Part shown: one piece after another, positions 11,232 through 43,927 of the stretch | Position numbering within the stretch: the stretch's first letter is position 1 | Layout: each line of letters starts with the position of its first letter | Source of the DNA: Marsupella aquatica | Lineage: Eukaryota > Plantae > Marchantiophyta | Direction: 5' to 3' | Assembly: GCA_973895155.1 (NCBI GenBank) | Contig: OZ316891.1 | Span: forward strand, 23,435,899 to 23,499,898 | Length of the DNA stretch: 64,000 nt | Notes under the pieces: generated by a model | The model's input: the letters and a program-made list of their open reading frames with translations, nothing else | What the model was told of the DNA's origin: nothing | The model's database searches: none | Position numbers and translations under genes: made by a program

Positions 11232-11311
11232 GGCTTGAAAGGCCCCAAGCCGGGAGTTAGTCCGAGTCACTAACTAAGGGAATATTCCAGCGGTGGAAAA
11301 CAAATATACCT
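11232..11311 (+). other. Conserved multi-hairpin RNA motif in LTR unit A
   Basis: Stems GGCTT/AAGCC, AGTTAGT/ACTAACT and TTCCA-GCGG-TGGAA; they covary with the copies at 17538 and 40454. Confidence 0.65.
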
Positions 11312-11489
11312 ATGACTAGTATGAATTACGCAGGTGTTATACCAGTAAGTCTATCAACTTAGCCCGACTTAGGACTAATAGAGGTCACTACACACCTCCT
11401 TGCCCGAACCCTCACCCTTACTGGTGGTCGAGGTCGCACCATGACACTAAACTGGATTTAAGGCCCAGGTTAGTGGCGCAACATTTCCA

Positions 11490-12310
11490 CCCTAAATTAT
11501 TCTCGGTGGGGGTCTCAGAGATGGACTCGGGTCATTTGGGCAACAGTATTTGTACTCGGCAAGCCTCTCTGAGATGGTAGATTTGTACGGACACGCGATC
11601 CATACAAAATTACATTGTAAAAACATTGAAAAGTACTGTACGGTCAGTTTTTGCATGCACTTTTGGGTTCATCCTAGTATTTTGGCGAGGGTCTGACATC
11701 GAATGTGGGATAGAACCAATTTGGGTCCTTCATTTGAAACGGAACACCCTTAATTTCATCTCGGAGAGGGTCTCTGAGAGACATAGTGTATGTTGTAGCT
11801 AACCCTTTGAAATTGTTAACAGGGTCCACAAGTGGTGTCATCTGGCCAAAGTACGCCCACGACTCCATCTCAGAGAGGGTCTCCGAGAGGCTGGGTCTCA
11901 TTTGGCAACCTTTCTGACCCAATATGCGATCTGGGAGAACTGCTCTCTGGCCACTTGGGGCACACGGCTCCATCTCAGAGAGGGTCTCCGAGCGATTGGG
12001 TTGCAATCTCACTTCCCTTTCCACCCAAGACGCGATTGACAATTTTTGTTGTCTGGCCGTTCGGGCCACACCACTCCATCTCAGAGAGGGTCTCTGACAT
12101 CGGATGTTGGATAGAACCATTTTGGGTCCTTCCTTTGAAACGGAATACCCTTAATTTCATCTCGGAGAGGGTCTCTGAGAGACACAGTGTATGTTGTAGC
12201 TAACCCTTTGAAACTGTTAACAGGGTCCACAAGTGGTGTCATCTGGTCCACAAGTGGTGTCATCTGGCCCACGACTCCATCTCAGAGAGGGTCTCCGAGA
12301 GGCTGGCGAC
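11490..12310. repeat. Continuation of the MULE palindrome-rich region, with a ~200-bp block duplicated ~400 bp apart
   Basis: Repeated ATCTC(A/G)GAGAGGGTCTC(C/T)GAG; 11690-11890 resembles 12090-12300. Confidence 0.85.
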
Positions 12311-12388
12311 CTTTTTGACCCAAGAAGCGTACTTTTCTACCGTGAAGTTTGCTAGAGTGTTGGACTTTTTTCTACTTCTCATATTTTA

Positions 12389-12416
12389 CCCTAAACCCTA
12401 AACCCTAAACCCTAAA
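12389..12416. repeat. Four CCCTAAA plant telomere-type repeats (telo-box-like) upstream of the ParB gene
   Basis: CCCTAAACCCTAAACCCTAAACCCTAAA. Confidence 0.85.
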
Positions 12417-15400
12417 CATAATTGGCTGCCTTTATTAAGTCTCCTCCAACAAACCCTCCTTGATCTTGTTGACTTGTGCTCTTCCCCCTTCTCTTAACCC
12501 CAATTTCCTCTTTTAGTTAAGCCACCCAAATGATAATGCATGTGGGCAACCATTTCCTCTTTGAGCTGACGCACTGAGATGTTGACGCGTCTTAGTAGGC
12601 CTTGGAATGAAATGACAGCAAGGGTCTCCTACATTCGGACTCATTTGAGTTGTAGGCCGAAGTCCCTAATTGTACCCTAAATGTACCCTAAACTCTCTCG
12701 TACTAGTGGTGGTCAGTACTCACGTTAGCATTGTGTACTTTCTTGTTTGGGCCGTTAACATGTACGTATCGAAATATAGTTAGGATCTCCCGTATCTATT
12801 GCGTACTTTAGTGTTGTGCAGTACGTGCGGTACGTTATTCCTTGAAGTGGATGTCGTTCCTTCCTCGTCACTCTTCCACGGTGTGACACCTTAGGTTTGG
12901 CGCTCGTCTTTATCACTAATCCCCGGACCTTCTCACTCTGCCTCACTCTTTTGCGTCCCTTACTCGTTCGCGCTCTAATCCGCGCTCTTCCTCAATCTTC
13001 GCATATTGGTCTTGTGCAATCTCTCACTTCTCCGTGCTCACATCCGCATTGTTCCTGCTCTTCTTCAGTCGTCCCACTCACGGTAAACTCTCCTGTGCAA
13101 CCCTGTTATTGTGTCTACTGGATTGCGTTGGTGTTTTGAGGCAGTGAGCGTTTAGGCAACATTTTTTTGTGAGCATTTGCGATAGTGATTTGCCATGAAC
13201 GTTGGTGATTCTCTCAGGTTTTTCTCTTGGCTCCCCCTTTTTCTTGATATGTAAAATCCATTTGTAGATGAATCAAATGTGTGATAGGCTAGACCCCGCA
13301 TATCCTTGAAAACTGGCTCTCTCGGCGGGGCTCGCTGAGATCTTGTCAGGTTTATAGGTCGAGCTATTGCCGAGTAATAACTCTTTCATTTCTCATGTAA
13401 TCTAAGGTCAAAATACCAAAGAGGAAAGACTCGACTGGAGCTGGACCTGCCGACAGCCAAACTTCTCAGCGGAGTAAGAAACCACGATCCAAGTCTCCTT
13501 CGCCAGTCACGTCTCGACTGACGCGCTCACAGGGTGGTCCACTTATGGAGTCAGTCGACTCTAGGAGGAAGTTTGAGCCAAAGCAAATATCATTTGAGCC
13601 TATTGGAGTGGCAGAATTGGCTGATATTGCTGAGAAGGGAGCCTGGGAGTCTATCGTCTCCAAGTATGAGACAAAGTTTAGTAAGGATCCGCCCCGGATC
13701 CCCTTGTGCCGGCTCATGCCAATGGAGGCAGTGAGGAATCTTCAGGATGAGTCGGTTGCAAAATTAAAAAAAGGGTTCAAAGAGAGCGGCTATGTTGTGA
13801 AGCTCAGCGAGTTCCACATTACTGAGTTCAATGAAATTGGAGAAACGCAGACAGTGACAGACTTCAAGCCATTTTGGGACCCTCTATGGACTCAGCTCAA
13901 TGAACAGTTTGAGCAAGAGTGCGATGCATCAAAGGAGTTCAAAGTCCTTAAGGACAAGATGTTTTGGGTTTTTTATGGAAACCATAGATACACAGCCTGG
14001 TCCGCAGTTGCTTCTGAGTATCCGGATCAATTGCAATACCATTCGTGCGTCAGATTCTCTCTTTTGAACGCTGGGAAGGACGGATTCAAGAAGGTTGAGC
14101 AAGCAATGCACGCTCTCAACTCGTAAGTACTCTCATTCGCGTCTTTTTGCAAAATGTGATTACCCGTTTGTGTAAACCTTGTGTGCCATCTTGGAGAGCC
14201 TCTCTGAAATTGCCGCTATGAGTACTGTTTGTCATTTTCAGGATAAGTGCGACTGTCGTAAAGACATCCTGGTTTAATGACGCTGATCGGGTTGCAAAGC
14301 TATTGAACACTCCATTGGAGGAGTATAGTTTGCTCATGTCAAAGGAGACAATGGAGGCTTTCATGAAGGCCCAAAATTGAGGACATGGGAAGACTTGGTA
14401 CTCAAAGAATATGACAAAAGAAGCCGTTGTGTACATCATGTCTTGGTCAAACATTGAAGCGGGACAAATCAATATCTCCAAGGAGATGGCACAAGACGCA
14501 GCTCGTGGGCACCCGTGGAGTGTGAAGAGAACTGAGGAGGAGACGGAGGCAATGATTATTGTTGCATGCAAGGCCTGGGACAACAAGTTCCCCAAGCTTG
14601 CGGCCTGCGTGAATCCGGCCAATGGAGACCAGTTCATGCCGGTATGTCGGCAGCTGTATCACAAGTTGTCAAAGGACGCCAAGCAGGGTGTGATGAATGT
14701 ACAGGTTGGCTTGGACAGGGTTCGCTTGTTTGCTGGGGCTTGGGTAACTGCAGAGTGCAGAGTAAAGCTATTGAAAGCTCATTTTGGAACGGAGGAGGAG
14801 AAGAGTATGTATCACCATCCACGTAGCAATGGTGATGCTGCAATTAGATCCTGGTTAGCGGTCTGGTCAATGTGGTGTTACATTGACCACGTTGGTTGTG
14901 TGATTTTGACCGATTTTGCTGCAAAGGCCTACCAAAGACAGATGTACCGTGAGTTTTCCGGGACAGAGGAGGAATTTGCAGAGCTATATAGAAGGCTTTA
15001 TTGAGCTTATGTGCAAGAGAAATCACTGAAACTAGGCGGGGAAATTTGGATTGACGGAAAGGCCACGGTCTTGTTAAAAGAATTGTGGAAAAAGCGAACA
15101 AAGAGGTGCGTGACAAGATTTCTAATCAATCAGGAGAACATGAATGCATCCATATTGAAAGAGCTGCCATGGGCACTCACATCTTGGATGGAGCCGAAAG
15201 GGAGCCTTAGCATGTATCCATGTGATGGCCAAATTCCTAATGGCAGAGTAGTCTGCGATTGGGAACGTCAAAACTGCCCATGGTATATGGAATACCGTGA
15301 CTGGAATACTTTTATCGATGACGCTGAGAAGGAGTGTGCAATGAAGCTGAAGGACCAACAGGAGCCTACAAATTACTACGATATATCCAAGCTGCGACAA

Positions 15401-15629
15401 TTGACGGACTCTATGCCCCAGGCAATAGCTTTGGAGGCCATAATCCCAATGGACCCAGCCTATGATGGGAAAAAGGCCCGAAAGGAAGGAGGCGAGAAGA
15501 AGGTCGACAAGGAACAATCCGCCGAGGCCAGTCAGTCAAATTCTATAAGCACTCCAACAAAGACCCCATCAGGTAACTCAATTCCTTTCAAATCAGGTGG
15601 TGGCTTGCATTGGAAAAAACCTTGGCTGG

Positions 15630-15805
15630 GTTGGCGAGGCTTGCCGAGATTAAGTGTCTGGTCCAGTCCAGATGTTGGCGAGGCTCTCCGAGATTAAGTG
15701 TCTGGTCCAGTCCAGATGTCAACGAGGCTCGCCGAGATGAAGTATTAGTTGAGTAATAAGTTGCTTGCATATAATGAACCCGATCTTGGCGAGGCTCGCC
15801 GAGAT
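15630..15805. repeat. Intronic ~43-bp repeats with the palindrome, e.g. ATCTTGGCGAGGCTCGCCGAGAT (15783-15805)
   Basis: Four palindrome copies lie between donor 15572 and acceptor 15847. Confidence 0.85.
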
Positions 15806-17537
15806 GCAGTTGCCATCATGAAGCTCATCAATTTGCATCCTATGCAGGTCATGCAGAGATCCAAACGGAACCTGATTCTATCAAGAGCAAGGGTGTAGAG
15901 CTGGCTACAAAGGCAGCAGTTGAGGACAGTCCAGGGGTTTTGCAGGGTCCAGGGCACAAGGATAAACAACCAATAGTTGAGTTGGGTCCAGACGAGGCTC
16001 CACTGCAAGAATTTGACTTGCCTCCGCATGAGGCTCCTGAAGTACAAGATGAATTGGCTGACGAGCAGCAAGGTGAGGATGATGTGGGTGAGCAAGAGGA
16101 AGAGGAGCGAGAGGAAGAGGACAAAGGACAATCCGGAGATGAAGGGCGCTTGTCTGATATCTCTCATGTGCCTTACCGGCCACCATTACTGTCACGGCAA
16201 AAGGAAAAGGCCTTAAAAAAAAAGCAAACTAGGCGACTCAGAGCTCCCAAAGGGAGCCCAAGCAAAGCACGTGACGAGGAATTTCCTCCTCTTCCTTCCC
16301 CCACTGAGTCGCCTCCCCCGCCCGGCACTGGAGAGGTTCCGCCCACAACCATCCAACCTGACCCCACATTGGAAAATGAGGAGGATGAAGAGGCCCTTGG
16401 AGAACAGGATAACACAAAGCTGGAAGGAGTAAGGCGTCCTTATGCCAATACCATGTCTTCCCAGAGCAAACATATGTATTTTAGGTGGTCTCCAAATCTA
16501 TTTCCAACTTTTTTTGATGCGGCTAAAGAAGGTACCGAACCCCCTGTAGTTAGTAAATTGATCTCATGGTGCAGAAAGCTATTGCGGGAAGGTTTGTGTC
16601 AAAATGCCTGGAGAAAAGGGGGGAAGCGAGTGAAGACTGGTGCAGATTTAATTCTGATACATATGGGAACAGACACGCGTATGGTCGAGGGTAAGTCCAC
16701 CCCGTTGTGGAATTTGTTCCGGGAGGACGACTTGAACCGGGTTCAGGAGTTTGCTCGAGATGTCCTTGATTCCGAAGGACTGTTTGCCATCGTGCACAGT
16801 GGTTCGCTTCGGCACTCAACTTGCATTTATGATGCATTAGTTTACGAGAATACCAACTGGGGGTTGAAAGAAAGCTTCTTTATCTGGAACGACACACCCA
16901 CCTACGATGGTAGGACTGGGAAGCGAGTAAGTCCCATCAATTACCTACTTCTTCATTTATTTTTTATTCCAATGACTTACTATCCTAAACTAAGGAAGTC
17001 TGACCTCTGAATATGTTTGGCCGATCCAGAGCGAATATCTCAAGCTAGACCTGTGGGGGTTTCAATCTGCTGTGGAGATATGCCCAAAGGACGATGTGGC
17101 ACCAATTAGTGCAGAGCTTGATATGAAGAGTAGGAATGGGCTAACGAACTATACATCCAAGAAGAATCAGGTTAACGATCCTTTTGCGGGCACATTGTCG
17201 CCAGCAACGCTCCAATGTATCATCGAATATATGTCACGCGATTGACATGGGTCTTAACACCAAAAATGTCACTATGGGTGCCAAAACCATCTCCTTGTAC
17301 CTGAGGATCACGAAGGGATGTTGTGAAGGTCGATAAACACCAATTTATGCCCTTAACACCAGACTATCATAGCAAGACTCTATCACACATCACCCAAGCT
17401 CAATCCCAAGGAACCAAGGTTGGGGATCAGGTCTGCGCTCATGATAGTTCTGGTGAGAAGGGGTCTTCATATTGGGCCCGTACACACAGGGCCTAGCGCT
17501 ATGGTGCGCATAGGTCTATACGTATGCTTACTGTCAT

Positions 17538-17619
17538 AGGTATGTTTCTATTCCGCCGCCGGAATGTACCCATAAACCAGTGACTCCGGACTGATTCCCG
17601 GCTTAGGGACTTCTAAGCC
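17538..17619 (-). other. Conserved multi-hairpin RNA motif in LTR unit B
   Basis: Minus strand: GGCTT/AAGCC, AATCAGT/ACTGGTT and TTCCG-GCGG-CGGAA. Confidence 0.65.
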
Positions 17620-18964
17620 ATTGCCCCACCACTCTACCATTCCACTCTCAGCAATCAGAGCTATGACAGTCCTCACCCAGCCCGCTTCAATGCACCCTGT
17701 ACACCTCTCAGTGGCGCTGCTAGTCCCATCATACACTCAGATTGCCTCACACACACACACATCCATGAGAGAAATGAGGCCTGAGAGGAAAACTCAGTTA
17801 AATTCAAAGATGTGCACAACAGTTCACTGAGAACACTTGATCCGAACACTAGGCCCGAAGGCTGTCTCCTCCAGATTACGACGTGCTTGCCCTGCAAGCC
17901 CCATGCTTGCCATGCAAGCTCAATCCTGAACCTGAGCCCGGCTCACTCCAGATTGCGATGGCAGATTGGACTCGAACCAATCTCGTACTTGCCTTGCAAA
18001 CTCAATCCTGAACTCAACCTCCTTCACTGCACTTCATTCTTGGGGGCACATACAGATCTCACACCTCCAATTCAGAACGTCAAGTTACGCATACATAGTT
18101 GACTCAACTTCAAAGCTGGTACCAGGCTAACGGCGATCTACCCCAGGCTGCAATGAGGCTCGGCCTCACGCTTGCCCTGCAAGCTCCGCTCTGGCCATAG
18201 ATCCCTTAGTGCTCTCCACCAGACAAAGGGCGGGACTCCCCATGGATCACGTAGCCTTGCCAGACTGAACTGTAAATGCTCCTCTTGTTGCCCCTCAATC
18301 AATGTCTCAACCTCCCTAATGTGCTCACCACAAATCAAATTGACATCCTCCCCACAATTTACAATCACCAATACATCACCTATCACCAAGGCTCTGTATC
18401 GGGGAAAAGAACCCAGTTGTGCTACCCACTAGAAAGAGCCACAATCCAGCTCGCAAACCTAGCAACTCGTTGCTGTGAAGCTTGGCTGATTACTCCCTGA
18501 GTAATAGCACAACCAAGCTCTCCCCAACACGCAGCGTCCAAGTCCAGCCTTGCTTGCACAGAGCTCCTCCCTGCTGCTCAGTCTAAGTGAGATCACACAA
18601 CTGAAGTCCCCCCTGCCTCTACCGGGGGGCTGCTCTATATACTCTCTCATTGAGCCCAAATGGGTGGATGCTACGCTGCTGGAGCCCCATCCCAGCCCTA
18701 ACAGAGCCACCACTATCTCTAAATACTGAACCCTAACTCGCAGCTTTATTTCTATCTCAAATTGGCTATGTACTTCGGATTTGGCCCTCCTCCATGGTTT
18801 TTGCGAGCTTGCGCCTCCTCTCTTGATTTCTCTATTCAACCATTTTCTGCGTGGATAGCAGCGTTGGAAGCGGCTTGAGCTCTTCTTTCCAACGAGGTTA
18901 ATTATAGCCGATTTGGTCAAATACACAGAGAGTTATGCCCCCGCAACCGAGAGGGGGTACTCAC

Positions 18965-19345
18965 TCCTGCGCTAACCCGAGTTACATAGCTAACCCGAGT
19001 TCGGCTAACCTAGCTATCCTATCTAACCCGAGTAGAGCTAACCCGTGGTCTCGGGTTAGGCCGCTACCCACTATCCGCTAACCGCTAACCTAAGCTGAGC
19101 CCAAACCCGAGCTTACCTATGCTAACCTGAGCCCGAGTTTAGGCTAACCCGAGTTAAGTCTAACCCAGGATCAATCTAATCCGAACCCGGGTTAAGCCTA
19201 AGCTGAAGCTGTGCTTACTTGAGCTAAGCTGAAGCCGTGCTTACCTAAGCTAAGCTGAAGCCGTGCTTACCTAAGCTAAGTTGAAGCCGTGCTTACCTGA
19301 GCTAAGCTGAAGTCGTGCTTACCTAAGCTAAGCCGTGGTCAAGCT
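18965..19345. repeat. Short CTAACCCGAG-type repeats and a 26-bp tandem array (x~5) near the 5' end of unit B
   Basis: Unit GCTAAGCTGAAGCCGTGCTTACCTAA at 19223, 19249, etc. Confidence 0.85.
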
Positions 19346-20164
19346 TGGGTTAACCCGAAACTGAAGCCGAATCCGCTAATTTCGGCCACAAGTTAACCCG
19401 TCACACTAATCAGGCCGTATCTTTCTTAATACACCTCCGTTTCTCAAGTGTTTTATATCGATTTTACTCGCCTTGACCAGATCTTTCCAATGCTCTTTAC
19501 AGATCCAGATTTGGTGACATATTAAAAGAGATATGGTCGTCAACCACCCGCGACATAGCTTTTATTTCCCTACTCTTAACGCCATGATTGCCCTTATTCT
19601 TGCCATCTTGCTAATTGTTATGCAATATCAATAGCTACTCCTTGCATACAGCAACCTACTTAATCAAATTACAAAATAAGGACCATGTCATTGGCGTCAC
19701 AATATACAACACACCCTGGGGCAACTATCCTCACTTTCAACGCACAGTTTGGGGCAATATTCAAGGCGGGTGAAAATTGCGGGCGGATGGTGTTGGGACT
19801 GAATCCTATCCTCACTTCGGAACTTGTGCGCAAGACCAACTGGCACAACTGGTTGGAGTGATCTCCCCGGAGGAGGAAGAGGTGGTCTGTTCAAAAGCCA
19901 ATCCAGAAAAGCGCAAGAAGAAAAAGCCGGCAGTACTCCCAACGACATGTAAGTTTTCTGGCGTTTGACGTTGTTCATTTCATATTTGCTTGCTCGTCGC
20001 AATGGTTGACAATAGAGGGATACAAGTCAGCGGCCTCGCCGATATGTATGCATGTCGGCTGACCTCGCTGACATTCATAGTGTCTGGCCTCCTCTACAAG
20101 CGAGGGCAAGTCCTAACTTGAGATGCATGTTGGCGGACCTTGCCAAGATTCATTCCTCTACATG

Positions 20165-21285
20165 CAACTCAGGAAGAGTCATCTTGGCGGGCCTCTCCAA
20201 GATCCGTCTGAGGAAGAGTGATCTCGGCTGGCCTCTCCAAGATCCGTCTCAGGAAGAGTTAATCTCGGCTGGCCTCTCTGAGATCCATCTCAGGAATAGT
20301 CATCTCGGTTGGCCCGTCTCAGGAAGAATGATCTTGGCTGGCCTATCCAAGATCCGTTGTAGGAAGAGTCAATCTCGGCTGGCCTCTCTGAGATCCGTCT
20401 CCGGAATAGTCATCTCGGTTGGCCTTTCCGAGATCCATCTCAGGAAGAGTGATCTCGGCTGGCCTCTCCAAGATCCGTCTTAGGAAGAGTCAATCTCGGC
20501 TGGCCTCTCTAAGATCCGTCTCCGGAATAGTCATCTCGGCTGGCCTCTCTGAGATCCATCTCAGGAATAGTCATCTCGGCTGGCCTCTCCGAGATCCGTC
20601 TCAGGAAGAGTGATCTTGGCTGGCCTCTCCAAGATCCGTCTTAGGAAGAGTCAATCTCGGTTGGCCTCTTTGAGATCCGTCTCAGGAACAGTCATCTCGG
20701 CTAGCCTCTCCGAGATCCGTGTACCGAAGAGTCATCTCGGCTGGCATCTCCAAGATCTGTCTCAGGAATAGTCAATCTCGGCTGGCCTCTCTAAGATCCA
20801 TCTCAGGAATAGTCATCTCGGCTGGCCTCTACGAGATCCGTCTCAAGAAGAGTGATCTCGGCTGGCCTCTCCGAGATCCGTGTACCGAAGAGTCATCTCG
20901 GCTAGCCTCTCTGAGATCCGTGTACCGAAGAGTCATCTTGGCTGGCGTCTCCAAGATCTGTCTCAGGAATAGTCAATCTTGGCTGGCCTCTCTGAGATCC
21001 GTCTCAGGAATAGTCATCTCGACTGGCCTCTCCAAGATTCGTCTTAGGAAGAGTCAATCTCGGCTGGCCTCTCCAAGATCCGTGTACCAAAGAGTCATCT
21101 CGACTAGCCTCTCCGAGATCCATGTACCGAAGAGTCATCTCGGCTGGCGTCTCCAAGATCTGTCTCAGGAATAGTCAATCTCGGCTGGCCTCTCTGAGAT
21201 CCGTCTCAGGAATAGTCATCTCGGCTGGCCTCTACGAGATCCATCTCAGGAAGAGTGATCTCGGCTGGCCTCTTCGAGATCCGTC
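20165..21285. repeat. Tandem array of ~28 units of 40-41 bp, each containing ATCTCGGCTGGCCTCTCCGAGAT
   Basis: Unit AGGAAGAGTCATCTCGGCTGGCCTCTCC(A/G)AGATCCGTCTC with no unique spacers. Lies between donor ~19949 and the exon at ~21380. Confidence 0.95.
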
Positions 21286-21321
21286 GATCCATGTTGACTA
21301 CCTTCCCCGACAGATGCCTTC

Positions 21322-22503
21322 TTGTTTACGTCTATTTTGGGCGCAATACATTATTTGATTGAATTTAAGTATAACTTAGTAGCAGTTCCCGACAGGACTA
21401 TCGAGTCAGCTACAGCGAAATGGGACAGCCAGGACAGACGGCTTGTCAAGCTCGCGTGGGAGGAAGCTTCGGCATATTTCTCACCGGAGAAGTTAACCCT
21501 TCCGTGCTACGCTGCTGATACCTATCATGAAGAAATAGTGCCTCGCTGTGTACAAGAGAGAAAGAGGAAAACTCTCAAATTTGTCGATGATAGGGCAAAA
21601 GAAGCTCAATCGGATGAGAGTAGCTCGGTAGGAAGTGACAGTCTCCAAACTCACCATGTAAGTATAAGATTATCAAGCTCCAGTTCCAAAGAGTAATGTT
21701 TGAATGAATTTACCTTCATTGCAGCTCAGGAGAGACCTGAGCAACCAGTGAATGAGGGGCTGACTCCCCGGGTAGGAGTGAAAGAGGTGGGGCTTGCAAA
21801 CAAAGGAGTGCCCGCACAACAGCAACCATCCAAATTTTTGGCGATAGTGAAGAAGGCATTGGACCCCAAGGCGGACCAAAAAGAGGTCATAGTGACAATC
21901 GAGGACGTGCACTTGACGAGGGCACATTTAAAATGCTTGAGGCCAAAAAAATGGATCACTTGCGACGTCATCAATGCTTACATTGCTTTACTGGAACGAA
22001 GAGCACAAACCCTTCATAAACCCAAGGCCATGTTATTGCCAACACATTTTTACCAAGTGATGACATCTCCGGAATATAACTTCAACGCAACGTTGGCATA
22101 TTGGCGGGGCATTCAAATGTGGGAGCACAAGTACGTTTTAATCCCTGTCTACCAGCCAAAACACTGGGTACTAGTTGTGGTTGATACTGCCTTGCGGCAA
22201 CTGCATTTACTTGATCCGCTTGTGCCCGAAGCACAGGATGGCACAGAAGTGTTCAAAGTAGCTCAGTTTCTTTCGGACCTCTCCATCTTGCGGGGTCGTA
22301 CCTTGTTATGTCCATTAGAATGGCCACGCATTTACCGAGATAACATTCCAGGTCAAGGGGATGATTACAATTGTGGTGTATATATCATAATCTACATGGA
22401 GCGTATTTCTGGAGGCGGCGTACTGAACTTTGACCCTGCACTTATAGACATCATGCGGCAAAAGATTGTTGTGGACCTTGTCTGCCAGACAATTACCCTG
22501 TAG
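21322..22503 (+). CDS. Ulp1/SENP-family (peptidase C48) SUMO-type protease; probably terminal exons (~21380-21657, 21725-22503) of the MULE cargo gene
   Basis: CLRPKKWITCDVINAYI, LLPTHFY, VLIPVYQPKHWVLVVVD, LLDPL and PGQGDDYNCGVY: His-Asp-Cys triad plus oxyanion Gln intact. Confidence 0.9.
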
Positions 22504-22935
22504 AGAGGATGGAAGATGGAGACGCAGCCTAGTGGAATTTAGTTCAGAAAATTGAGATAGACAACATCGTTGTAAAGTACAAAGTTTAATAAAAAGTGTG
22601 TCATCCAAATGTTCTTAATGTGGCTCCTATTTGATATGCTATGTTGTACACGTTGCTGGGTATGTTTTCATCTTGGCGAGCTCAGCCGAGATGGAACAAC
22701 ACTCCAAGGATATCTCAGAGAGGGCGCCAAGATGGTTAGAAAGGGCACCAAGATGGTCAGAGAGGCAGCCGACATTACTAATTGTCCGAACCAAAACAAT
22801 GTCGGAGTGGACTCCGACATAGGGTTTGACTGTGGGTGTGAATTAAGTCCATGTCGGCGGCGTCGCTGAGTTTCGGGCACAGACTGATATCAGTGACTGA
22901 TGAAAGTCACTGATAACTGATGAAGTTGTGTACCT

Positions 22936-23368
22936 CATCCTTGCGGGGGAAAATTGGATGGTTGCGATGCACATCATCCTCCAATACATCCACGGACGCC
23001 ACAACCTACACCTGTACACCTTCAATTGGGGCACATCCGTCACAATATCTTAGCAATACCCCATCGCAAGTAGGACTTTCACCATCCTCGCGGGGGGAAA
23101 TTGGATGGTTGCGATGCACATCATCCTCCAATACATCCACGGACGCCACAACCTACACCTGTACACCTTCAATTGGAGCACATCCGTCACAATACCTTAG
23201 CAATACCCCATCGCAAGTAGGACTTTCACCATCCTCGCGGGGGGAAATTGGATGGTTGCAATGCACATCATCCTCCAATACATCCACAAACGCCACAGCC
23301 TACACCTACACGCCTGCAATTGGAGCCATCCGTCAGAATTGCCCAACAATACCCCCTCACAAGTGGGT
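22936..23368. repeat. 147-bp tandem repeat (~3 copies), possibly a decayed coding repeat of an older element
   Basis: TTGGATGGTTGC at 22954, 23101 and 23248. Confidence 0.9.
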
Positions 23369-23369
23369 G

Positions 23370-23800
23370 GTTGTACGTAGCTAAATTCCCTGGAGACACG
23401 TAGGGGAGAGGTCAAAATACTTAGAGAGTGATATACCCTGGTACCTGTGGGCTTCCGCAGGTAATTTGGGTGCATTACCCTAAGATGGCCGGAATACCTA
23501 CTTCTTTGTTATCAAACAATGAATTACCGGGGGAATGTTGGGAAATACCCTGCACCCAAACCATGCATATCCTCCTTGTGAGTACAAGAGGAAGACAAGG
23601 GAAGGCATAGAATAGGCCGACTACTTATCTCATGACCCGATGAAGGATCTGTCCAGTATATGTGTGTAAAATGTTAGTAGAGAGCTAGCAGCGTCCCATG
23701 CCGCTAAGCCGCAAAACCGGCCTCGCCAAGAGCAAAACCTATGGGAATCGGCTTGTGCAGGGGGGTTTCTTGGGTTTAGGGAGCCATGGGACGCACCACA
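23370..23800 (+). mobile_element. LTR fragment of the Tat/Phygy-like gypsy family (3' end ...GCACCACA)
   Basis: 23595-23800 matches 35117-35334, and its 3' part matches the reverse complement of 33062-33190. No PBS and no clear TSD. Confidence 0.75.
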
Positions 23801-24681
23801 CATGGCAAGAGAAGAAAGCACATGCATACATGAACTTTCTCATGACTCCCTAGCTGGGTCATCCTCAAGTACACTTGCGTAGTTTTCAAAATGTGTTGAT
23901 GAGTTCAGTTTAGGGTGTGTCTTGCGTATGGCTACAGCTTATTTGATCTATCTCTTATAGATTATTCGATACATGTCTTAGCCATTTTTGTCATCGCTTG
24001 TCTGTAGATCTGACAAGTGACGCTAGTTTTACCATCTCGATAGTATCAAGCGATAGGCATAGGATGCGCGATGCGCGTTGCTTTTTGAATTTTGCAATCC
24101 TTTGGTTACGGGGTGGACACCTCGGATCATTTTGAACTTTTGTAAGCGCCTGGCGCTACCATATTAGTAAATTAATTTTCTATCACAAGACTTTGTGGAT
24201 TGTGGATTGGCGTCGGATGTGCAAATTGGTTGGATTTGGTTCGTCGTTACCCGCCTCTACCGAAGAGGTGTGAGGAGAATGCCATCCTTGGCATTTATGG
24301 TGAGAACGGTTTTACTCCCAACACAGCCACATCTAAGGCTGGCATCAAGGATGACAACGGTTCTTCCACAACCAAAAGGACTAGCGCCAGGCGCTAGCGT
24401 GATCACTTGCCCGACCGAGACGCTGCACGTTCTTCAATATCTTCTTGTACACGAGTTTTTGTTCTTTGGGACGGATTTGCTATTCGCTAACGGATAGCGA
24501 TCAAAATGGTTTTAAATGTACAGTTCCCATAAGCTCATTAAACGAGTGCCTGGCGCTATTCTTGACCATTTTTTGTGCATTCGACTCGAATCTTCTAAAC
24601 GTCCTGTTTTGAATGTCAAGTTCTTTGTTCACACCAGAATAATTTTGGGCATTCTTCGCTGAAGTTTTCTATATTCGGTTT

Positions 24682-29975: not shown

Positions 29976-29980
29976 GGTTT

Positions 29981-30050
29981 CTTGTTTCCTGTCATCGTTT
30001 CCTGTTTTGGGTTTCCTGTTTTCTTGTTTCCTGTCTTATGTAAATACCCC
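29981..30050. mobile_element. Right terminus of another GGGTA/TACCC-family MULE (body probably ~23800-24676), split by the copia and truncating the gypsy protease region
   Basis: TTTCCTGT repeats ending ATGTAAATACCCC, like 5381-5392 and 35886-35897. GCGCCTGGCGCTA-like motifs at 24146, 24385 and 24546. Confidence 0.6.
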
Positions 30051-33000: not shown

Positions 33001-33193
33001 CTTCTTTCCTAACTTCATATCTCACGGCTTAAGAAATGCCCCCTCCATCTATCGCCAAAAATGTGGTGCATCCCATGGCTCCCTAAACCCAAGAAACCCC
33101 CTGTACAAGCCGATTCCCGCAGGTTTTGCTCTCGGCGAGGCCGGTTCCGCGGCTTAGCGGCATGGGACGCTGCTAAACTCCTTTACTACTATT
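30051..33193 (-). mobile_element. Ty3/gypsy (Tat/Phygy-like) 5' part: LTR end (33062), PBS TGGCGATAG, degenerate gag with Zn knuckles and protease
   Basis: FHGRGDEDLDEWLDDFE, CALCYKTGHHKDTC, CYNCGQPGHF and PIDGGSG. High identity to the plus-strand copy at 35130-38350. Confidence 0.9.
31141..31615 (+). mobile_element. Copia-type solo LTR (475 bp) with an 18-bp tandem array, inserted in a gag Zn knuckle
   Basis: TGTTG...CAACA ends; TSD AAAAT. CCCGTGGACGTAG...GAACCACGTA motif. GGTTAGGTACAACTA(C/T)GT x~10. Confidence 0.92.
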
Positions 33194-34626
33194 TGTTGTG
33201 AGACAAGGTTTTTGATCATAATAATAGATCACTCACTCCATTAAGCTAAGGTATGGCTTTATATAGCCATTGGGTTACATCATATAAGGTTAAAGGTAAC
33301 CTTATTCTAGGGTTAAAGAGTAAACTATGGTTTACAACACTCCCCCTTGGTTAGTTTATGGGTGTGTAAAGTAACCACAGTTTTAACCCTAGGATATCAG
33401 TAATTGGTATTCCCATTGATGTAGCCTCATTAAAACCTTGCCGCTTTCTTCTCAAGGAAAGAGTACTACCATCATTACATATTGGGATCCAATTGGTCCG
33501 TTTTGGATATCATATTTGTATTTTGTCTAAAAATATGTTTCTTATGAATGTGTATGGTCATTCATTCTATAGATTTGTTATACTACGGGTATTTATAATT
33601 TTCCTATACTATCCGATGGTTCGTATAATGTCGATTCTGTAGGTCTTTGTTTTATTGACGACCTAACTTAGCTATGTGTTGTGCTTTCTCCAAGATGACT
33701 TTTTTAAGTTCGTAAGATCTTTGTCGTAAGTCGTCGGATGGGGGAAAAGCTTGGCTTGTGAGCTGTGCATTGCTAGCATGTCCGATCGAGCCGTCAGGTG
33801 TTATGCATCTTGATCTGCTGTGTATTTGAAGATCCTTCATTCGGGTGGATCGCCTTCGCTCTTATGTGTTAGTACGAGTCTTCTATCGATTCATGGTGTG
33901 GCCTTCATGGTGGTGGCATGTTGAGTGTTGGCGATCTGTATCATAGTAACAGTGATGGACGAAGAAAAAAATGATGAAGTGAAAGTTATGAACGGGGTTT
34001 CAGTGGGGGTTGCAAACCTCTAATATGAGCTGCTTTGCGCTGGTTCTTTCAGTTTTGTTTGTCAATAGTTGGATTGCTCGTGTTGGCATTTGTAGTTTAT
34101 GCACTTTTCGTTAAGGATTGTATGTCATGGCTTTCATGGAGTAATGTTGATAGCTTTTTCATACCTATGCCTGTGATGTGGTCTCGATGAGTTCCTGCAG
34201 GTAGAGGTTTTGTAAATATATCTGCCCTGTTGTCCTGTGATCAAATCCATTCTACTTGTATGTTTTTGCCTTGCTGTTCTTGGGTAAAGAAGAACTTGGG
34301 ATCGATGTGCTTTGTTATTTTGGTTTTCATAATGCCGTTGACAATTTGGTCTATGCAGGCTTTGTTGTCCTCATATATTATTGTAGGTTCTATTATCTTT
34401 GACTTGCCCGTGCTGGTCCTGATGTGGTTAATGATACTTCTTAACCATAGGGCTTCTCTGCATGCCTCGTATAATGCTATGACTTTTGAATGATTCGATG
34501 ATGTGGTTGTCATCGTTTGCTTTGTGCTACGCTAGGATATTGCAGTGGTGCCTTGCAGGAAGACATAGCCCGTTTGTGATTTTGAGTCTTGGGGTCAGAT
34601 AGGTATCCAACATCTGTGTATCCTGC
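33194..34626 (-). mobile_element. 3' fragment of a Bianca-like copia (RNase H, PPT, 146-bp 3' LTR 33194-33339)
   Basis: TTSSNHSKVIALYEACRE, YEDNKACI and TKHIDPKFF; PPT AAGGGGGAG. LTR is similar to 59373-59512. Confidence 0.9.
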
Positions 34627-35607
34627 GTGAGAAGGACGACCAGCTCAACCAGACTTATGCCAAGATGAATAAGATGGAGTCTGAGGGATAAATACCTGGG
34701 CAACAGGGAGTCCAGGGCCTCTTCTGTAACAAGTTTTTAGTTGCACCAGCAGCGCTGGGATCAAGTAGTAAGAGAAGCTCTTGGTTAGTTATACAGTGAC
34801 CCTTGTGTATATTCATGTTTCCTCATGCCTAAGAACTGAATAGAGTTGGCCTCATGGCTTAGTTCGCAGAGCTTGTGTATGAGATGTACTGTTTGTATGG
34901 CAAGTGCATGGTATAACTCAGTCAGAAGGAGTCATTTTGCTATTTGTGTGTCGCATTAACTTGTGTGAAGAGTGCCCACATCAATGAAGGGAAGTAGCAA
35001 GGGAGTGAGAGTTGGATGTGTCGAGCTCAGAGAGGTCTTAGCGGCTTAACCAAACCAATTGGGGATCATTCTGGCGGCGGAATCCAAACATACCTAATGG
35101 AAGACCAGGAGAAAAATACAAGGGAAGGCCTAGAATAGGCCGGCTAAGTATCTCATGACCCAATGAAGGATCTGTCCAGTATATGTGTGTAAAATGTTAA
35201 TAGTAGTAGAAGGAGAGTTAGCAGCGTCCCATGCCGCTAAGCCACGGAAACGGCCTCGCCGAGGATGAAACCTGCGGGAATCGGCTTGAGCAAGGGGGTT
35301 TTCTTGGGTTTGGGGAACCATGGGACGCACCACATTTTTGGCGCTAGATGGAGGGGGCATTTCTTAAGACGTGAGATATGAAGTTAGGAAGGAAGCGTGG
35401 GTAATGACTGAACCTATGCCAAGAGAGGAAAGAGCGATTCAACGGGAGAGAGCTCGTCTGCAGCAGCTCACCGGGTGGCATGATACACAACGACTGAGAG
35501 GGGCAGAAAGAGCTAGTAGCTCTGTAATTGAAAGTGGCATCGAAGAAGACATACCAGAAGAAGAATTGGTAAGGAGAAGTGAGTCTCCAACCGACATGGG
35601 GGAACCA

Positions 35608-35897
35608 GGGTATGGCCCGCGTGACAGTAAACAGGAAACAGGTTTACTGGTACCAGGAAAATTTTTCCTGTTACCAGCAAAAAGTTACTGTTACCAGCAA
35701 AAACAACCATGTCAAAATATTTTCTAAAAATTCTCATTTTCCAAAAAAATTTAAGTTACAACATTTTTTGGCTAGCTTTGGGCGCTAGCAAATAAAATTT
35801 CAAAAAAAAATTTCAAAAAAAATTACCACTCATTTTCCTGTTACCAGTTTCTGTTTTCTATTATTGTTTGTTGTTTCCTATCGTTTATAAATACCCC
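35608..35897. mobile_element. Mutator-like MITE, GGGTA...TACCC family (290 bp)
   Basis: 9-bp TSD GGGGAACCA at 35599-35607 and 35898-35906. The empty site is present in the paralog near 32790. Confidence 0.93.
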
Positions 35898-36076
35898 GGG
35901 GAACCAGAGGCACGGCCAGACGAGAGGCCAGGGACCAGACTGAGCCAATGGTCGCGTATTAATTACAAGGCCTTTCATGGAAGAGGAGATGAGGATCCGG
36001 ACAAATGGTTGGATGACTTTGAAGGAACCACTGCAGCAAATGGAGAATCGGCCATCAAGATGCAAATTCTTCCCGG

Positions 36077-36372
36077 CTCGGGGATTTCACTTCCACAAAA
36101 ATGGCATGTCACGTGCGACAAAGTATAGGGTCATTTTATTGGTTCAAAGGGAAGACTTAAGAATTTTCTGAGAAGAACAATAGGGTCTTTTAAATCCAAT
36201 TTTGAGACTTATAAGAACATTAGGGTCCTTATAACCAAATGTCTGGAATATTCCAAGAATATTCCAACTTTATAGGGGTTGAATTTATTTTTTAATTCTT
36301 ACATTTTAGGGGGTCTGAGGCCTAAAAACGTCACAGGTGATTGGGAGGCATCCGTATAGTGAGACCACTGAG
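36077..36372 (-). mobile_element. MITE with CTCGGGG-type TIRs and 8-bp TSD (296 bp)
   Basis: TSD CTTCCCGG / CTTCCCAG. Ends are homologous to 37765-38092 in the opposite orientation; empty site near 32620. Confidence 0.85.
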
Positions 36373-37764
36373 CTTCCCAGCCTGTTCAAGGATGAGGCTA
36401 GGCCTTGGTATAGAGCATTGGACGTGGAAGATCAAGCCATCTGGAATACTTTCAGATCACTATTTGTCAAGGAGTTTTGACCCATTGGAACTTCAGAGTT
36501 AGCAGTGCTGAAGTTGGGACGACTTTGGTTCAAGGAGAACAAATCTTTCAGGAAGTTCCTGCAACGCTTTCAAAAGCTGGTAAGACGTACCAAGACCAAT
36601 GCATCTTAAGGTATGCAACTTCAATGGTTAGTGAATGCTTTGCCACAGAAGATGAGTTTTGCAATTAGGAAGGAGAATCCAGAGACTTTAGCCGAGGCAA
36701 TTAGAGATATTCAATTATACATTAATGCAGATATCACAAGCCGAAAGAAACAGCTTAAGTTTGAGAGTTCCTCATCGGAGGAAGGATCAACCCATAAGAA
36801 AAACTATAAGAAAAAGAAACATTCTAAGAAGTCAAGAAGTGATAACTCAAGCTCGGATAGTGGAGGTAGCAAGAGTGAGTCATCTTCTAGTTGTGAAGAA
36901 GAAAAAACTAGGAAAAGGAAGGGCAGAAGGAGGGGAAAGATGAAAGTCAAGATAGAGGCTAAAACACCAAATAACATCATAGCCCTTACCGAGCAGCTTA
37001 AGGCTATAATAGCAGAGGTAAAACCGAAGAAGAAGGTAGTACAAGAGGATAGCTATGTATGGTGTGCCTTATGTTATAAAACCGGACACCATAAAGATGC
37101 GTGTCCTAAACTTAATACTAGTCATGTTTGGCATGTGGCTGAGGTCAGACCATGTCAGGGAGAAGTAGAGTACTTTTTAGGGGATGCCGCTGATAGTGTT
37201 TTTGGCATCAGTGAGACTGGAGCACAAGACCTATCCAACAGACCTCCTAGGCCGAATGTGCAAAGATTTGCGGCATGCTATAATTGTGGTCAACCTGGTC
37301 ATTTTGCTAGAGAATGCCCGAATGCACGCAAACAAGGTGATGGACAACCAGCTCAGCTATGTATGGGATGCCGACAGGAGGGCCGCCTGCTAGGACAATG
37401 TCCTACGTGGCTGGCAGGCCTGGCCGCAAATCATAAGCTCTTGCCAGTCAAGGTCTTGCCACCAGGTACTACCCCCGGAGGAGCTCAAATCAACCACATC
37501 AAACTCGGATGGCAAACGGATGCCGAGGCAGAGTTCGGACCATCTGATGATGAGGCCAAGGCCCTATCAACCTTCTCAGAGGAGGATTTGGATCATGATT
37601 GCTACCGGGTCTCTACTCGATCTACCAGAAGGAAGGAAAGGTGGGATCGGCTGGCCAAAAATAAAGGGAAGGATAAGGAAGAAAGAATTGACTCTTCGTC
37701 AACATCAACACAAGGGAAAGGAAAGGCGCCAGCAACACAGGTAAGCCATGAGCCCACTAGTGAG

Positions 37765-38092
37765 CTCGGGGGGGTCACTATATGGAGGGTCATACATCGC
37801 GTGCGACGTTTTAGGGTTTGACCCCCCTAACTTTAAAGTGAAAAATATTTTTTTGCAAAGCCCTTTCTTTCTTAAAATTTTGTCATTTTTTATTAAAAAA
37901 CCCCTAAAAACTTTATAGAAAGTATTTTTTGCAATTAAATAGGCCTATGTGTTCTTTAAAGTCGACCAATCAATAAAACATGCCCTATGTGTTCTTCCAC
38001 CAAACTTTGGAAGTCTTCCGCCACACCCATTTAAATGGGCCTATACTTCGTCGCACGTGATGTGTCACTTCCGTGGAAGTGACCCCCCCGAG
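37765..38092 (+). mobile_element. MITE with perfect 15-bp TIR CTCGGGGGGGTCACT and 8-bp TSD (328 bp)
   Basis: TSD CTAGTGAG at 37757-37764 and 38093-38100; empty site near 30680. Confidence 0.95.
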
Positions 38093-40453
38093 CTAGTGAG
38101 CCCAATCCTTCACAGGATACCAACTTCAATCGAGATCACCCTAAGTTGTTCTACCCCTCTATTACGGCTAGTGTTAAGAAACAATTGCGAGAATTAAAAA
38201 CCCTGGAGAATATTGAAGCCATAGCCAAGGATGTGAAATGAGCAAAAGCGTTGTTTGCTTCGGAGGATCCAATGGCTGTGGAAACCAGCGTGAAAAAACA
38301 GGCCGAAGCCAAGATGAAGACACCGCCAAAAGAGAAGCCGATAGTTCCCTATGCACTACTACATATTGGCCCCTTTTGCGAAGCTTTTTTTTGACGCCGG
38401 GATGGTCTTGCGATGTCATCGACTTCAGATATTTTGTGATCAAACACGCATCACAATAAACCATGCTCACAGGTTCGCAACATGGTGTTGCGAAGCTAAA
38501 TACCTCGCAATTTGTTTGAGATCGGATTGAATTCGCAACTCTTTCAGATACTATTCGTCTCGCAAAGTATTTGTGGATCCGCGACCATCGCGACTGCATT
38601 TGGATCTCTTTTGTTTCATAATTTAGCGATAATAATGTACTCAAATATATATTGTGAACCTATTAGCTTCGCAGAATATTGTGAAGCATAAATAGTCGCA
38701 AGTTACCGAATCCAGTTGATTCGCAAAGTTGAGAACACATTGGCATCACAATTACCGATGGTGTGTTATTCACAAAGTGTTCAGAAGTTGCTTCTTGACA
38801 AGCTTGAAAATGTTTTGCAAAGAGAGTTGTTTGAAAATTTTGTAGAATGGAAATGTTTGAGAGAGTTTCTTTACAAGATGGAGAATGCATGTGTTTAGGT
38901 TACAGCTAGGGTTTTCAAAAAGGTGGCATGCATGAGGATAGCTTTGGAAACAGCTAAGGTTGCATATATAACAGTGAGATGAAATTTCAAAGTCCAATTA
39001 AGTGTTTGTAAAACAAAAGAAGAAAAGTAATATGTTAATATAAATAAAACCATGATAGTTAGTTTAGGGTCAAATTTTGGGCCCACAACAAGTTTTACTA
39101 CTAGTGCATCAAACCTGGTCCTCATCCTCGCCTCCATTTGACACAATAATAACGTCAGGTTTTTCCGAGATAATGGAACGGGACCGTGGCACATACGGTA
39201 TAACAACTGACCACTCTAGGTCTGGTGGGTACGGAATATAGAAACACTGCTCAAGGTGACTTGGGAATGTAAATGGTTCAGATGTTTGCCAATGAGATGG
39301 TTGAAAGCTAGTTGCTGATGTCTTCAGTCGAGTAAACCCACACTCATCAAGAAGTACCATGCGATTATCACCAACCAGGTGAATTTTGAACCACTTACAC
39401 TTGAAGACATACTCTTCAAATTTGGAATCGGCATCATAGGATATGATCAAGATCTCCTCAATCTTCCCATAGTGAGGCACCACATCTCTGATCACATTAG
39501 TGTCATGACGGCTACTTTGTGAATCTTGCATGAACTGCCCTTGAACTCCACAATCAAAAGTTCTTCCCCTCTTCTCATCAAGGTTAGAAATCCTGAAATG
39601 CCTCCCTTGTGTCCACATTGTTGTTATGGTTTGAACAAGTCTTAAAGGACCATGAACAATTGTTCGAACCTCAGGAGTCATATCTGGAAAATGTGATACA
39701 TTCTCACCTTGGGCCACCATAGCATCCAACTGAAGTACTTTCTCCTTCATATACTCAAGGAACTTTGGAAAGATCCTTGGGCGACGACTCTCCCTCTTTG
39801 CATCCTCATAAAACTCTCTCCAATCTTCCATCACATTGCTGTTACTCAACATGAAAGTACTAACCTGTGTCAACTCCACTGCGGTTAGTAAGCGTGTTTT
39901 TTTTGCACCTGTTAAACGGTCCTCCTCCACTTCCCTCTCTTCCATCCAAGTGCGTGGAAAACTAGGATCAATGGTAGCTAAGATGTTACTACAATAAAAC
40001 ATACTCTCAGCTGCCAAGTATCCAGTTGCCATGCTCCCCTCCACTCGTGCACGGTTCCATACATAAGCCTTTAACACGGCCATATACCTTTCCAGCCAAT
40101 ACATCCACCTACAATGCACCGGACCGGCAATGGCAACCTCCCTCACAAGATGAACGAGAAGATGCACCTGACAATCAAAGAAGGAAGGAGGGAGGGCCTT
40201 CTCCAACTTGCATACCACCTCTGCTGCCAATACCTCCATCCGTGGTATCTCTTCTTCATATATTTCCTTTGAGCATATCCATCTCAACAAAGTGCCCTGT
40301 CACGTCGTAGGCTTCGGCCTTAACTCAGACTTCAGCTTAGACGGGCACATCCCTCGTAAATCTGAGGGTTCGGGCAGGAAGGGAAGCACGTAATGCACCT
40401 TATTTTCGTAAACTAGCGCTAAGTGCGCATACTGCTAAATACGAACACCTCCT

Positions 40454-40531
40454 AGGTATGGTTTGTGTTCCGCCGCCGGAACGTACCTTAGTCGATAGCA
40501 GGATCGACCCCGGCTTAAGGGCTTCTAAGCC
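40454..40531 (-). other. Conserved multi-hairpin RNA motif in LTR unit C
   Basis: Minus strand: GGCTT/AAGCC, GTCGAT/ATCGAC, and AGGTA..TTCCG-GCGG-CGGAA..TACCT. Confidence 0.65.
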
Positions 40532-43819: not shown

Positions 43820-43920
43820 TCAGAGGAGATAGTAGTGGCGACCTAGAGAGAACGAGAGAGCTGGGGTCGAAGCTGGCGCGCGGACTGATGGACTGGTGCA
43901 CTACAAAGGGTTGGCTCCCC

Positions 43921-43927
43921 TTTTATA
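43921..43927 (-). promoter_or_regulatory. TATA box of LTR unit C
   Basis: Minus strand GTATAAAAGGGGAGCC; similar CCATAAGAGAGGAGCC at ~7963 in unit A. Confidence 0.55.

Follow-up and report, generated by a model that had tools for sequence, protein, structure and literature searches.

A three-hairpin RNA motif in liverwort LTRs that is complementary to tRNA-Asn and probably forms the second half of a multipartite primer-binding site

The window analyzed here, a stretch of 64,000 nucleotides from the liverwort Marsupella aquatica (contig OZ316891.1), raises the question of what function is served by a multi-stem RNA motif of about 85 nt that recurs near the end of several long terminal repeats (LTRs). 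A first-pass annotation had placed three copies in divergent LTR units and had proposed a packaging or dimerisation signal, a translation element or an unclassified ribozyme. The three copies were found again in the sequence at the places and on the strands given there (Table 1), and the divergence was borne out by the LTR-borne proteins of two of the units, which are only about 38% alike.

Units 1 to 3 are solo LTRs with ends of the TG..CA type and 5-bp target duplications, and the motif lies 180-330 nt from the LTR end in each of them. The ORF proteins of units 1 and 3 matched with 38% over 149 aa and 45% over 44 aa. Pfam assigned no family at its cut-off to the 874-aa ORF of unit 3; a word-based protein search returned 0 relatives and a profile-free full scan 42, the named ones being from the liverwort Calypogeia fissa. 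The insertion site of unit 3 is a CACTA transposase gene. The window holds no intact reverse transcriptase of the motif-bearing elements, and an aspartic protease match was obtained only below the cut-off (E 0.03). Loose LTR ends in contigs were absent among the 24 listed of 1098. The lineage that carries the motif is probably a plant Ty3/gypsy lineage of liverworts, and it shares with the non-chromovirus group (Athila/Tat, OTA), as its traits are described in PMC6317226, a non-Met primer tRNA, a long LTR, an extra ORF and a 5-bp duplication.

Table 1. Positions of LTR units, motif copies, primer-binding sites and tRNA-Asn-complementary boxes in the window.
Feature	Position	Strand	Description
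Unit 1, solo LTR	7647..11483	+	3837 bp; duplication TTTCC; broken copy of the LTR-borne ORF inside
Unit 2, solo LTR	17232..19701	-	2470 bp; duplication ATATA; without long ORF
Unit 3, solo LTR	40298..44285	-	3988 bp; duplication TGCCC
LTR-borne ORF of unit 3	41195..43819	-	open, 874 aa; C-terminal coiled coil
GCGCCA, units 1-3	11148-11153; 17717-17712; 40644..40649	+; -; -	~85-115 nt upstream of motif
Motif copy 1	11232..11312	+	stem 1 11232-11251, stem 2 11255-11275, stem 3 11285-11298, kept tail to 11312
Motif copy 2	17537..17619	-	in unit 2
Motif copy 3	40453..40531	-	in unit 3
Motif copy 4 (new here)	35043..35096	+	stem 3 and tail kept; stems 1-2 absent
Primer-binding site, copy-4 element	35339..35355	+	complement of tRNA-Asn nt 60-76, 16/17
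Second tRNA-Asn primer-binding site	33041..33057	-	15/17
Box T, copy 1	11232..11239	+	complement of tRNA-Asn nt 54-61 (T loop), 8/8; stem-1 5' arm and 2 loop bases
Box D, copy 1	11270..11277	+	complement of tRNA-Asn nt 16-22 (D loop), 8/8, one G.U; stem-2 3' arm and linker
Box A, copy 1	11283..11291	+	complement of tRNA-Asn nt 1-9 (5' acceptor strand), 9/9; stem-3 5' arm and first two loop bases
Box T, copy 2	17619-17611	-	5+3 pairs, one bulge
Box D, copy 2	17580-17573	-	7/8, four G.U
Box A, copy 2	17565-17558	-	8/8, one G.U
Box T, copy 3	40531-40523	-	5+3 pairs, one bulge
Box D, copy 3	40495-40488	-	7/8, three G.U
Box A, copy 3	40482-40475	-	8/8, two G.U
Box T, copy 4	35043-35051	+	9 pairs, one tRNA bulge
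D-arm complement, copy 4	35053-35063	+	11 pairs, two G.U
Box A, copy 4	35068-35075	+	8/8, two G.U

A pattern over stems 1-3 gave 3 matches in the window and 0 in 100 shuffles, and all 17 base pairs are kept in each of copies 1-3. Stems 2 and 3 agreed with the earlier description, with pairing kept in all three copies. Stem 1 was also present, with 6 bp and an 8-nt loop, and one double change in it (G-C in copy 1 versus A-U in copies 2 and 3) had been overlooked. The three pairwise comparisons of copies yielded 4, 5 and 3 double changes, and the chance of such pairing under random placement of an equal number of changes, all of them transitions, was 6e-4, 6e-5 and 1.6e-3, values that are optimistic since the stems were picked after looking. 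Copy-to-copy double changes in the 17 pairs are all transitions, the one in stem 3 consisting of two CpG-type transitions; the sole transversion-type double change, seen in contigs of three runs, falls on the stem-2 pair directly outside box D, and little variation is seen in stems 1 and 3, in each of which the 5' arm is a box. Folding z-scores of copies 1-3 were only −0.46, −1.96 and −1.26, and the best predicted fold of copy 2 is without stem 2. The motif pattern had 1 match in viral contigs, without stems, and 65 matches in metagenomes, none of which (0/65) had the stem-1 arm, as expected of chance.

Two further elements of the proposed structure were not supported. An enclosing helix, GG(T)A with TACC, had been suggested, in which the 3' side proved invariant and changes on the 5' side disrupt one of the 4 pairs in copy 1 and two of them in copy 4. 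Pairing of the loop CCC with a downstream GGG as a pseudoknot is opposed by the G run directly abutting the stem, with no linker, and by its first G being A in 3-15% of the summed contig depth of three runs. The comparison with Rfam asked for in the annotation, made with the whole window and in three local scans, gave no fitting family, even at E=10. Likenesses to twister, pistol, HDV and hairpin ribozymes, judged by eye, failed on order or pairing. The data support a conserved, covarying cis-acting RNA structure close to the LTR end, and that part of the first functional reading stands; there is no support for the unclassified ribozyme or the translation element, the invariant letters being explained by complementarity to the primer tRNA.

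This complementarity was assigned by eye against the published rice tRNA-Asn (taken from a paper supplement), from which the host's own tRNA may differ; searches of the window, of 18 viral loci and of prokaryote genomes turned up no plant tRNA-Asn. In colinear fashion, the motif carries complements of the T loop, the D loop and the 5' acceptor strand of tRNA-Asn, the parts that the ordinary primer-binding site leaves free. The corresponding boxes T, D and A are present in 4/4 copies, on the same strand and for the same tRNA as the ordinary site, with one box under each hairpin in copies 1-3 and all three boxes kept in copy 4, which lacks two hairpins. They span 60, 62 and 57 nt in copies 1-3, against 62 nt in the tRNA. 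Differences from copy 1 in copies 2-4 are mostly changes that leave G.U pairs, and box D pairs in 29 of 32 cells over the four copies (counted by eye).

The boxes of copy 1 (T 8/8, D 8/8, A 9/9) lie on nearly one diagonal, with a chance of about 5e-7 before corrections. Among 15.6 million random 62-mers, 9+8 blocks so placed occurred in 379 and the third block as well in 7, with thresholds taken from the observed match. The complement of box T occurred 15 times in the rice tRNA file (13 Asn rows and 2 Lys rows), and that of box A 10 times, which by count equals the 10 Asn rows beginning so. A wobble-tolerant three-box pattern recovered all 4 copies among 9 sites and was not discriminating (shuffle mean 3.5, maximum 11). 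The tRNA match leaves three parts of the motif without explanation, namely the second half (GG) of the GCGG loop, the stem-1 3' arm and the AAA..ATACCTA tail; a packaging or dimerisation role, as first proposed, is possible for the loop and tail letters among these or as a side effect of tRNA binding.

About 260 nt separate copy 4 from a downstream primer-binding site for tRNA-Asn, which comes behind the LTR end at 35334 and is itself followed by gag with a CCHC knuckle; gag and candidate protease remains lie behind this copy. The LTR that belongs to the second tRNA-Asn site is cut by another insertion before the motif, and a primer-binding site was directly seen in the copy-4 family only. For units 1-3, being solo LTRs, the primer site is assumed to be that of the copy-4 element. 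Upstream of the motif these units carry the hexamer GCGCCA, which has the letters of the tRNA 3' end and could, on base complementarity, pair with the primer site; it occurs 19 times in the window, both strands counted.

We consider it probable (about 0.7) that the motif completes a multipartite primer-binding site as its second half, with a mode of action like that in Ty1, Ty3 and Drosophila gypsy, and its letters would be invariant because they are complementary to the primer tRNA. The boxes would stay hidden in closed hairpins until assembly. Annealing of the tRNA 3' end to the ordinary site would then free the 5' acceptor strand and the T loop, and, helped by the zinc-knuckle domain of Gag, the freed strands may use unpaired loop bases as entry points into stem 3 and stem 1; the D arm would pair with the stem-2 3' arm, leaving only the anticodon arm and the variable loop free. 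Were the motif in R/U5, it would lie 180-330 nt plus a spacer upstream of the ordinary site and might help to load and activate the primer; were it in U3, the tRNA would connect the two ends of the RNA in the manner of Ty3. In the energy model, the box A duplex was stronger than hairpin 3 in 4/4 copies (−12.0, −10.8, −11.1 and −7.9 versus −4.5, −6.2, −7.8 and −4.0 kcal/mol). Against this reading, the box T duplex was predicted to be stronger than hairpin 1 only in copy 1, with a tie in copy 3 and a weaker duplex in copy 2, and a 6-nt D-loop probe was weaker than hairpin 2 in 3/3 copies. Box T overlaps the ordinary site at tRNA nt 60-61; it needs the pair with A58, a base whose methylation is described as blocking pairing.

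Several other explanations were weighed. The motif could have arisen through capture of the primer tRNA in antisense orientation and now be a protein-bound packaging or dimerisation signal; the hairpins would then carry the function, and the match to the tRNA would be a relic. The box spacing fits copying, an unmodified primer tRNA can, according to a review, be copied to its 5' end, and the invariant G-rich tetraloop and tail, together with the CCHC knuckle in gag, would suit protein binding. However, 9/9 and 8/8 matches would not be kept without selection in families whose proteins are 38% alike, and copy 4 has kept its boxes despite having neither two of the hairpins nor the spacing, so that we regard this reading as unlikely. 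It is less likely still that binding of tRNA-Asn or its 5' fragments to the boxes serves some purpose other than initiation, such as selective primer packaging, support of DNA-stage strand transfer or the trapping of tRNA fragments by a decoy. This would agree with the strongest boxes matching the 5' part of the tRNA, with the additional service of the extra Ty1 boxes in primer packaging (as reported in PMC4974528) and with accounts of tRNA fragments acting on plant retrotransposon RNA; against it, box T lies in the 3' half of the tRNA and forms an unbroken extension of the ordinary primer site, which points to one intact tRNA.

A self-cleaving ribozyme of an unclassified kind, as in retrozyme LTRs, would account for the LTR position and the many invariant letters, and copy 2 contains strings that we take to resemble hairpin-ribozyme loops. 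These strings are, however, misordered and not kept in copies 1 and 3; no Rfam ribozyme (Rfam 15) was found on the motif at E<=10 on either strand, the invariant letters are stem letters that fit the tRNA, and copy 4 is without two of the three stems, all of which makes this reading very improbable. We give the least credence to a tRNA-derived polymerase III promoter of the Helenus type on the opposite strand. That strand does resemble tRNA-Asn nt 1-61, and tRNA-like sequence is reported from Helenus LTRs (PMC10886601), but the box B GGTTC, described there as kept in most Helenus, is absent in 4/4 copies, neither ARAGORN nor Rfam detected a tRNA, and the stems contain G.U pairs, which speaks for the given strand; moreover, the LTRs are long (2.5-4 kb) and belong to elements with gag, whereas Helenus (TRIMp3) is short and non-autonomous.

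Returning to the multipartite primer site, the motif suggests that it originated when copying of the primer read through. A more far-reaching account, which we put forward tentatively and at somewhat under even odds, is that a liverwort Ty3/gypsy lineage captured the whole reverse-transcribed remainder of its own primer tRNA into the LTR, where it became a three-hairpin switch that, together with the ordinary site, unzips the acceptor stem, T arm and D arm of tRNA-Asn; it would be the first multipartite primer site in plants and would record the way in which such sites come about. The description of priming in plant retrotransposons in PMC12786077 follows the yeast analogy and has one primer site, and we found no plant element with extra primer contacts in the open-licence literature. 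A module of about 85 nt whose pairing partners are named opens primer loading to in vitro tests, and offers a rule for LTR motifs, namely to compare them with the primer tRNA.

Among known systems, Ty3 of S. cerevisiae, likewise Ty3/gypsy, combines an ordinary site with remote segments directed to the T and D arms of one and the same tRNA, the second part being in the LTR region (PMC4974528, PMC5371799, PMC11381356). As described in these sources, Ty3 uses tRNAiMet, an 8-nt first part and two segments of 12 and 11 nt in U3 that are mostly unpaired by SHAPE, whereas the site proposed here would use tRNA-Asn, a full 17-nt first part and three segments that include the 5' acceptor strand, each in a covarying hairpin. 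Ty1 also has three segments complementary to the T and D arms, with a role in primer packaging and initiation, but those lie within 28 nt of each other, downstream in gag (PMC4974528), whereas the present boxes belong to the LTR and precede the ordinary site by hundreds of bases. Drosophila gypsy shares a second site for another part of its primer tRNA, annealing of which needs an NC-like chaperone; according to PMC1635307, it is a single 11-nt site near the 3' end, directed to the anticodon and T stems, that binds tRNA and is dispensable for cDNA synthesis, a point that weighs against the reading proposed here. The HIV-1 primer activation signal is similarly upstream of the primer site and pairs with the T arm, although it is described as one short box in a retrovirus (PMC13191261), against three boxes here over most of the remaining tRNA. 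Finally, Helenus resembles the present elements in having tRNA-related sequence within the LTR; there the polymerase III boxes are kept, with no link to its own primer given in PMC10886601, whereas here these boxes have disappeared, the strand of the element runs antisense to the tRNA, and that tRNA is the primer itself.

The three-hairpin RNA element near the LTR ends of units 1-3 (copies 1-3), described in the first-pass annotation as a covarying motif, is a real element that we reinterpret here: most likely (probability about 0.7), it works like a multipartite primer-binding site. Its stem pattern matched three times in the window and in none of 100 shuffles. All 17 stem pairs (6 + 6 + 5) were kept in copies 1-3, with 4, 5 and 3 double changes, and random placement of the same changes equalled the observed pairing at 6e-4, 6e-5 and 1.6e-3 (transitions only, stems picked post hoc). 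Taken alone, the folding energies of copies 1-3 were unremarkable (z of -0.46, -1.96 and -1.26). Two further proposals of that annotation found no support: in the enclosing GG(T)A/TACC helix the 3' side is invariant and 5' changes break pairs in copies 1 and 4, and in the CCC:GGG pseudoknot the G run directly abuts the stem, without a linker. Comparison with Rfam, which had been suggested, returned no matching family, and pattern scans of viral-contig and metagenome collections gave chance matches only.

A fourth, previously overlooked copy in another LTR family was reached through a one-mismatch match. Behind the end of its LTR, at 35334, come a primer-binding site and then gag, so that the given strand is the element's RNA strand. 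This ordinary site is the complement of the rice tRNA-Asn 3' end (16/17). As reference we used the rice gene set in supplement 1 of PMC5492330 (about 750 genes), where 15 of the 30 Asn rows are of the primer-site-matching type, these 15 being taken by us as cytosolic. Both ordinary sites share a mismatch to rice opposite nt 66 (35349, +; 33047, -), where the host tRNA-Asn may differ. The last 110 nt of the copy 4 LTR fold into a single long hairpin, whose closing helix, a perfect 10 bp, adjoins the primer site.

Matches between the motif and rice tRNA-Asn were read by eye, with standard numbering assigned by us. In copy 1, box T is complementary to nt 54-61 of the T loop (8/8), box D to nt 16-22 of the D loop (8/8, including one G.U) and box A to nt 1-9, the 5' acceptor strand (9/9). 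The boxes follow the reverse complement of tRNA-Asn from nt 61 to 1, spanning 60, 62 and 57 nt in copies 1, 2 and 3 versus 62 in the tRNA, and this stretch is exactly what the ordinary site leaves uncovered. In copies 2-4, box A pairs 8/8 using G.U pairs, box D 7/8 each and box T with one bulge; copy 4 lacks stems 1 and 2 but makes nine pairs with the T arm and eleven consecutive ones with the D arm. The GG preceding stem 3, formerly assigned to the enclosing helix, can pair with D-stem nt 11-13. Box A had been suspected beforehand, boxes T and D being recognised only in the comparison with the tRNA sequence. Among 15.6 million random 62-mers, 379 had 9 + 8 blocks so placed and 7 had the third block too; multiplied by 8 (copies, strands) and by about 50 (as if the primer site had not fixed the tRNA), chance is near 2e-4, at thresholds set post hoc. 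In the rice file, where alignment gaps may hide some occurrences, there are 15 occurrences of the complement of box T (13 in Asn and 2 in Lys rows) and 10 of that of box A, equal to the 10 Asn rows so beginning.

All four copies share a tail, AAA(C/T)..ATACCTA, which the tRNA-Asn match leaves unexplained; read on the opposite strand, it resembles a 5' splice site. Other families in the sequencing contigs diverge directly behind it in 6 of 21 loose-end rows among those listed. Downstream of the motif, units 2 and 3 carry an 8-base palindrome, TAGCGCTA, a possible dimer contact that is absent from unit 1.

Each hairpin holds one box (stem 1 has box T as its 5' arm, stem 2 has box D as its 3' arm and stem 3 has box A as its 5' arm), the two or three unpaired bases left at each being a possible toehold. 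Annealing at an ordinary site releases tRNA nt 1-7 and the T loop, which would open the hairpins with assistance from the nucleocapsid domain. Model energies, computed for unmodified RNA and for the parts separately, favour stem 3 opening in 4/4 copies, give a borderline result for stem 1 and disfavour stem 2 opening on the D loop alone. Methylated A58 would cost box T one pair (PMC13191261). A sequence serving as both box and hairpin would account for the near constancy of stems 1 and 3 and for the transition-type changes of stem 2. If the module lies in U3, the tRNA would bridge both RNA ends; if in R/U5, the primer would be activated locally. Upstream of the motif lie two TATA-like stretches and, about 200 nt away, a stretch rich in U and UG, possibly the poly(A) region. 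The second TATA-like stretch precedes a C-run/G-run hairpin in units 1-3.

Contigs from four coded runs (494, 769, 526 and 6 pieces) were aligned to copy 3. All 20 variant rows fell within 40472-40512, so the edges of this copy were probably beyond reach of the assay. Thirteen were of CpG type, 3 of which would break a hairpin pair if alone, at 0.4-5.5% of summed depth; the other seven affected loop 2 (n = 5), a linker (n = 1) and a stem-2 pair that became G.U (n = 1). The six stem-2 pairs were kept in all seven loose-end rows that show stem 2, five times via a double change; five of the seven rows combine majority cells from several contigs, and the other two come from a single contig each. 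In all 8 variant rows within boxes D and A, pairing with the tRNA is maintained or becomes better, which is weak evidence because most transitions there would do so anyway.

The DNA of the window is of plant type, rich in repeats, and includes remains of CACTA transposase, copia and gypsy. Related long ORFs lie within the LTRs of units 1 and 3 (38% identity over 149 aa by protein comparison), an uncommon arrangement, downstream of a TATA-like box some 330-360 nt into the LTR. These ORFs had no matching Pfam family; among 42 relatives, those with a species name belong to the liverwort Calypogeia fissa (6 of the 10 clusters examined), which makes a liverwort the probable host. A 623-aa ORF, without a Pfam match, has a coiled-coil end resembling the LTR-borne ORF. 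Several tandem arrays have a common CTCGGCGAG/CTCAGAGAG-like core, comparable to CACTA subterminal repeats.

Coordinates of the motif copies and of the features around them
Feature	Position	Strand	Remark
Unit 1, solo LTR	7647-11483	+	5-bp duplication; holds copy 1
Unit 2, solo LTR	17232-19701	-	5-bp duplication; holds copy 2
Unit 3, solo LTR	40298-44285	-	5-bp duplication; holds copy 3
Copy 1	11232-11312	+	tail 11299-11312
Copy 2	17537-17619	-	tail 17537-17550
Copy 3	40453-40531	-	tail 40453-40466
Copy 4	35043-35096	+	tail 35083-35096
LTR-borne ORF, unit 1	8129-10516	+	broken; wholly within solo LTR
LTR-borne ORF, unit 3	41195-43819	-	open; wholly within solo LTR
623-aa ORF	774-2645	-	
Ordinary primer site	35339-35355	+	behind copy 4 LTR
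Ordinary primer site	33041-33057	-	
Terminal hairpin, copy 4 LTR	35225-35330	+	
Copies of terminal hairpin region	23690-23800; 33062-33175		
TATA-like stretch and hairpin, unit 1	10833-10870	+	
TATA-like stretch and hairpin, unit 2	18645-18600	-	
TATA-like stretch and hairpin, unit 3	40983-40935	-	
Palindrome, unit 2	17501-17494	-	
Palindrome, unit 3	40419-40412	-	
Tandem arrays	6972-7637; 11692-12308; 20168-21396; 56980-57241		

Previous work has described three-segment sites for the T and D arms of tRNAiMet in Ty1 and Ty3 (PMC4974528, PMC5371799, PMC11381356), a second 11-nt site in Drosophila gypsy that binds tRNA yet is dispensable (PMC1635307), and a T-arm box upstream of the HIV-1 primer site (PMC13191261). 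Helenus LTRs contain tRNA-like promoters unrelated to priming (PMC10886601); the present motif is missing the polymerase III box B. Tat clades of liverworts have been described (PMC13468544, PMC10508981), as has an extra ORF upstream of gag-pol (PMC3485330). With a primer tRNA other than Met, long LTRs and an additional ORF, the elements studied here fit non-chromovirus gypsy (PMC6317226). No plant element with a multipartite primer site was found in the open-licence literature, surveyed mostly at listing level. Compared with the known multipartite sites, the motif has another host and another tRNA, adds a box for the acceptor strand, is laid out colinearly with the tRNA and has its boxes caged in covarying hairpins.
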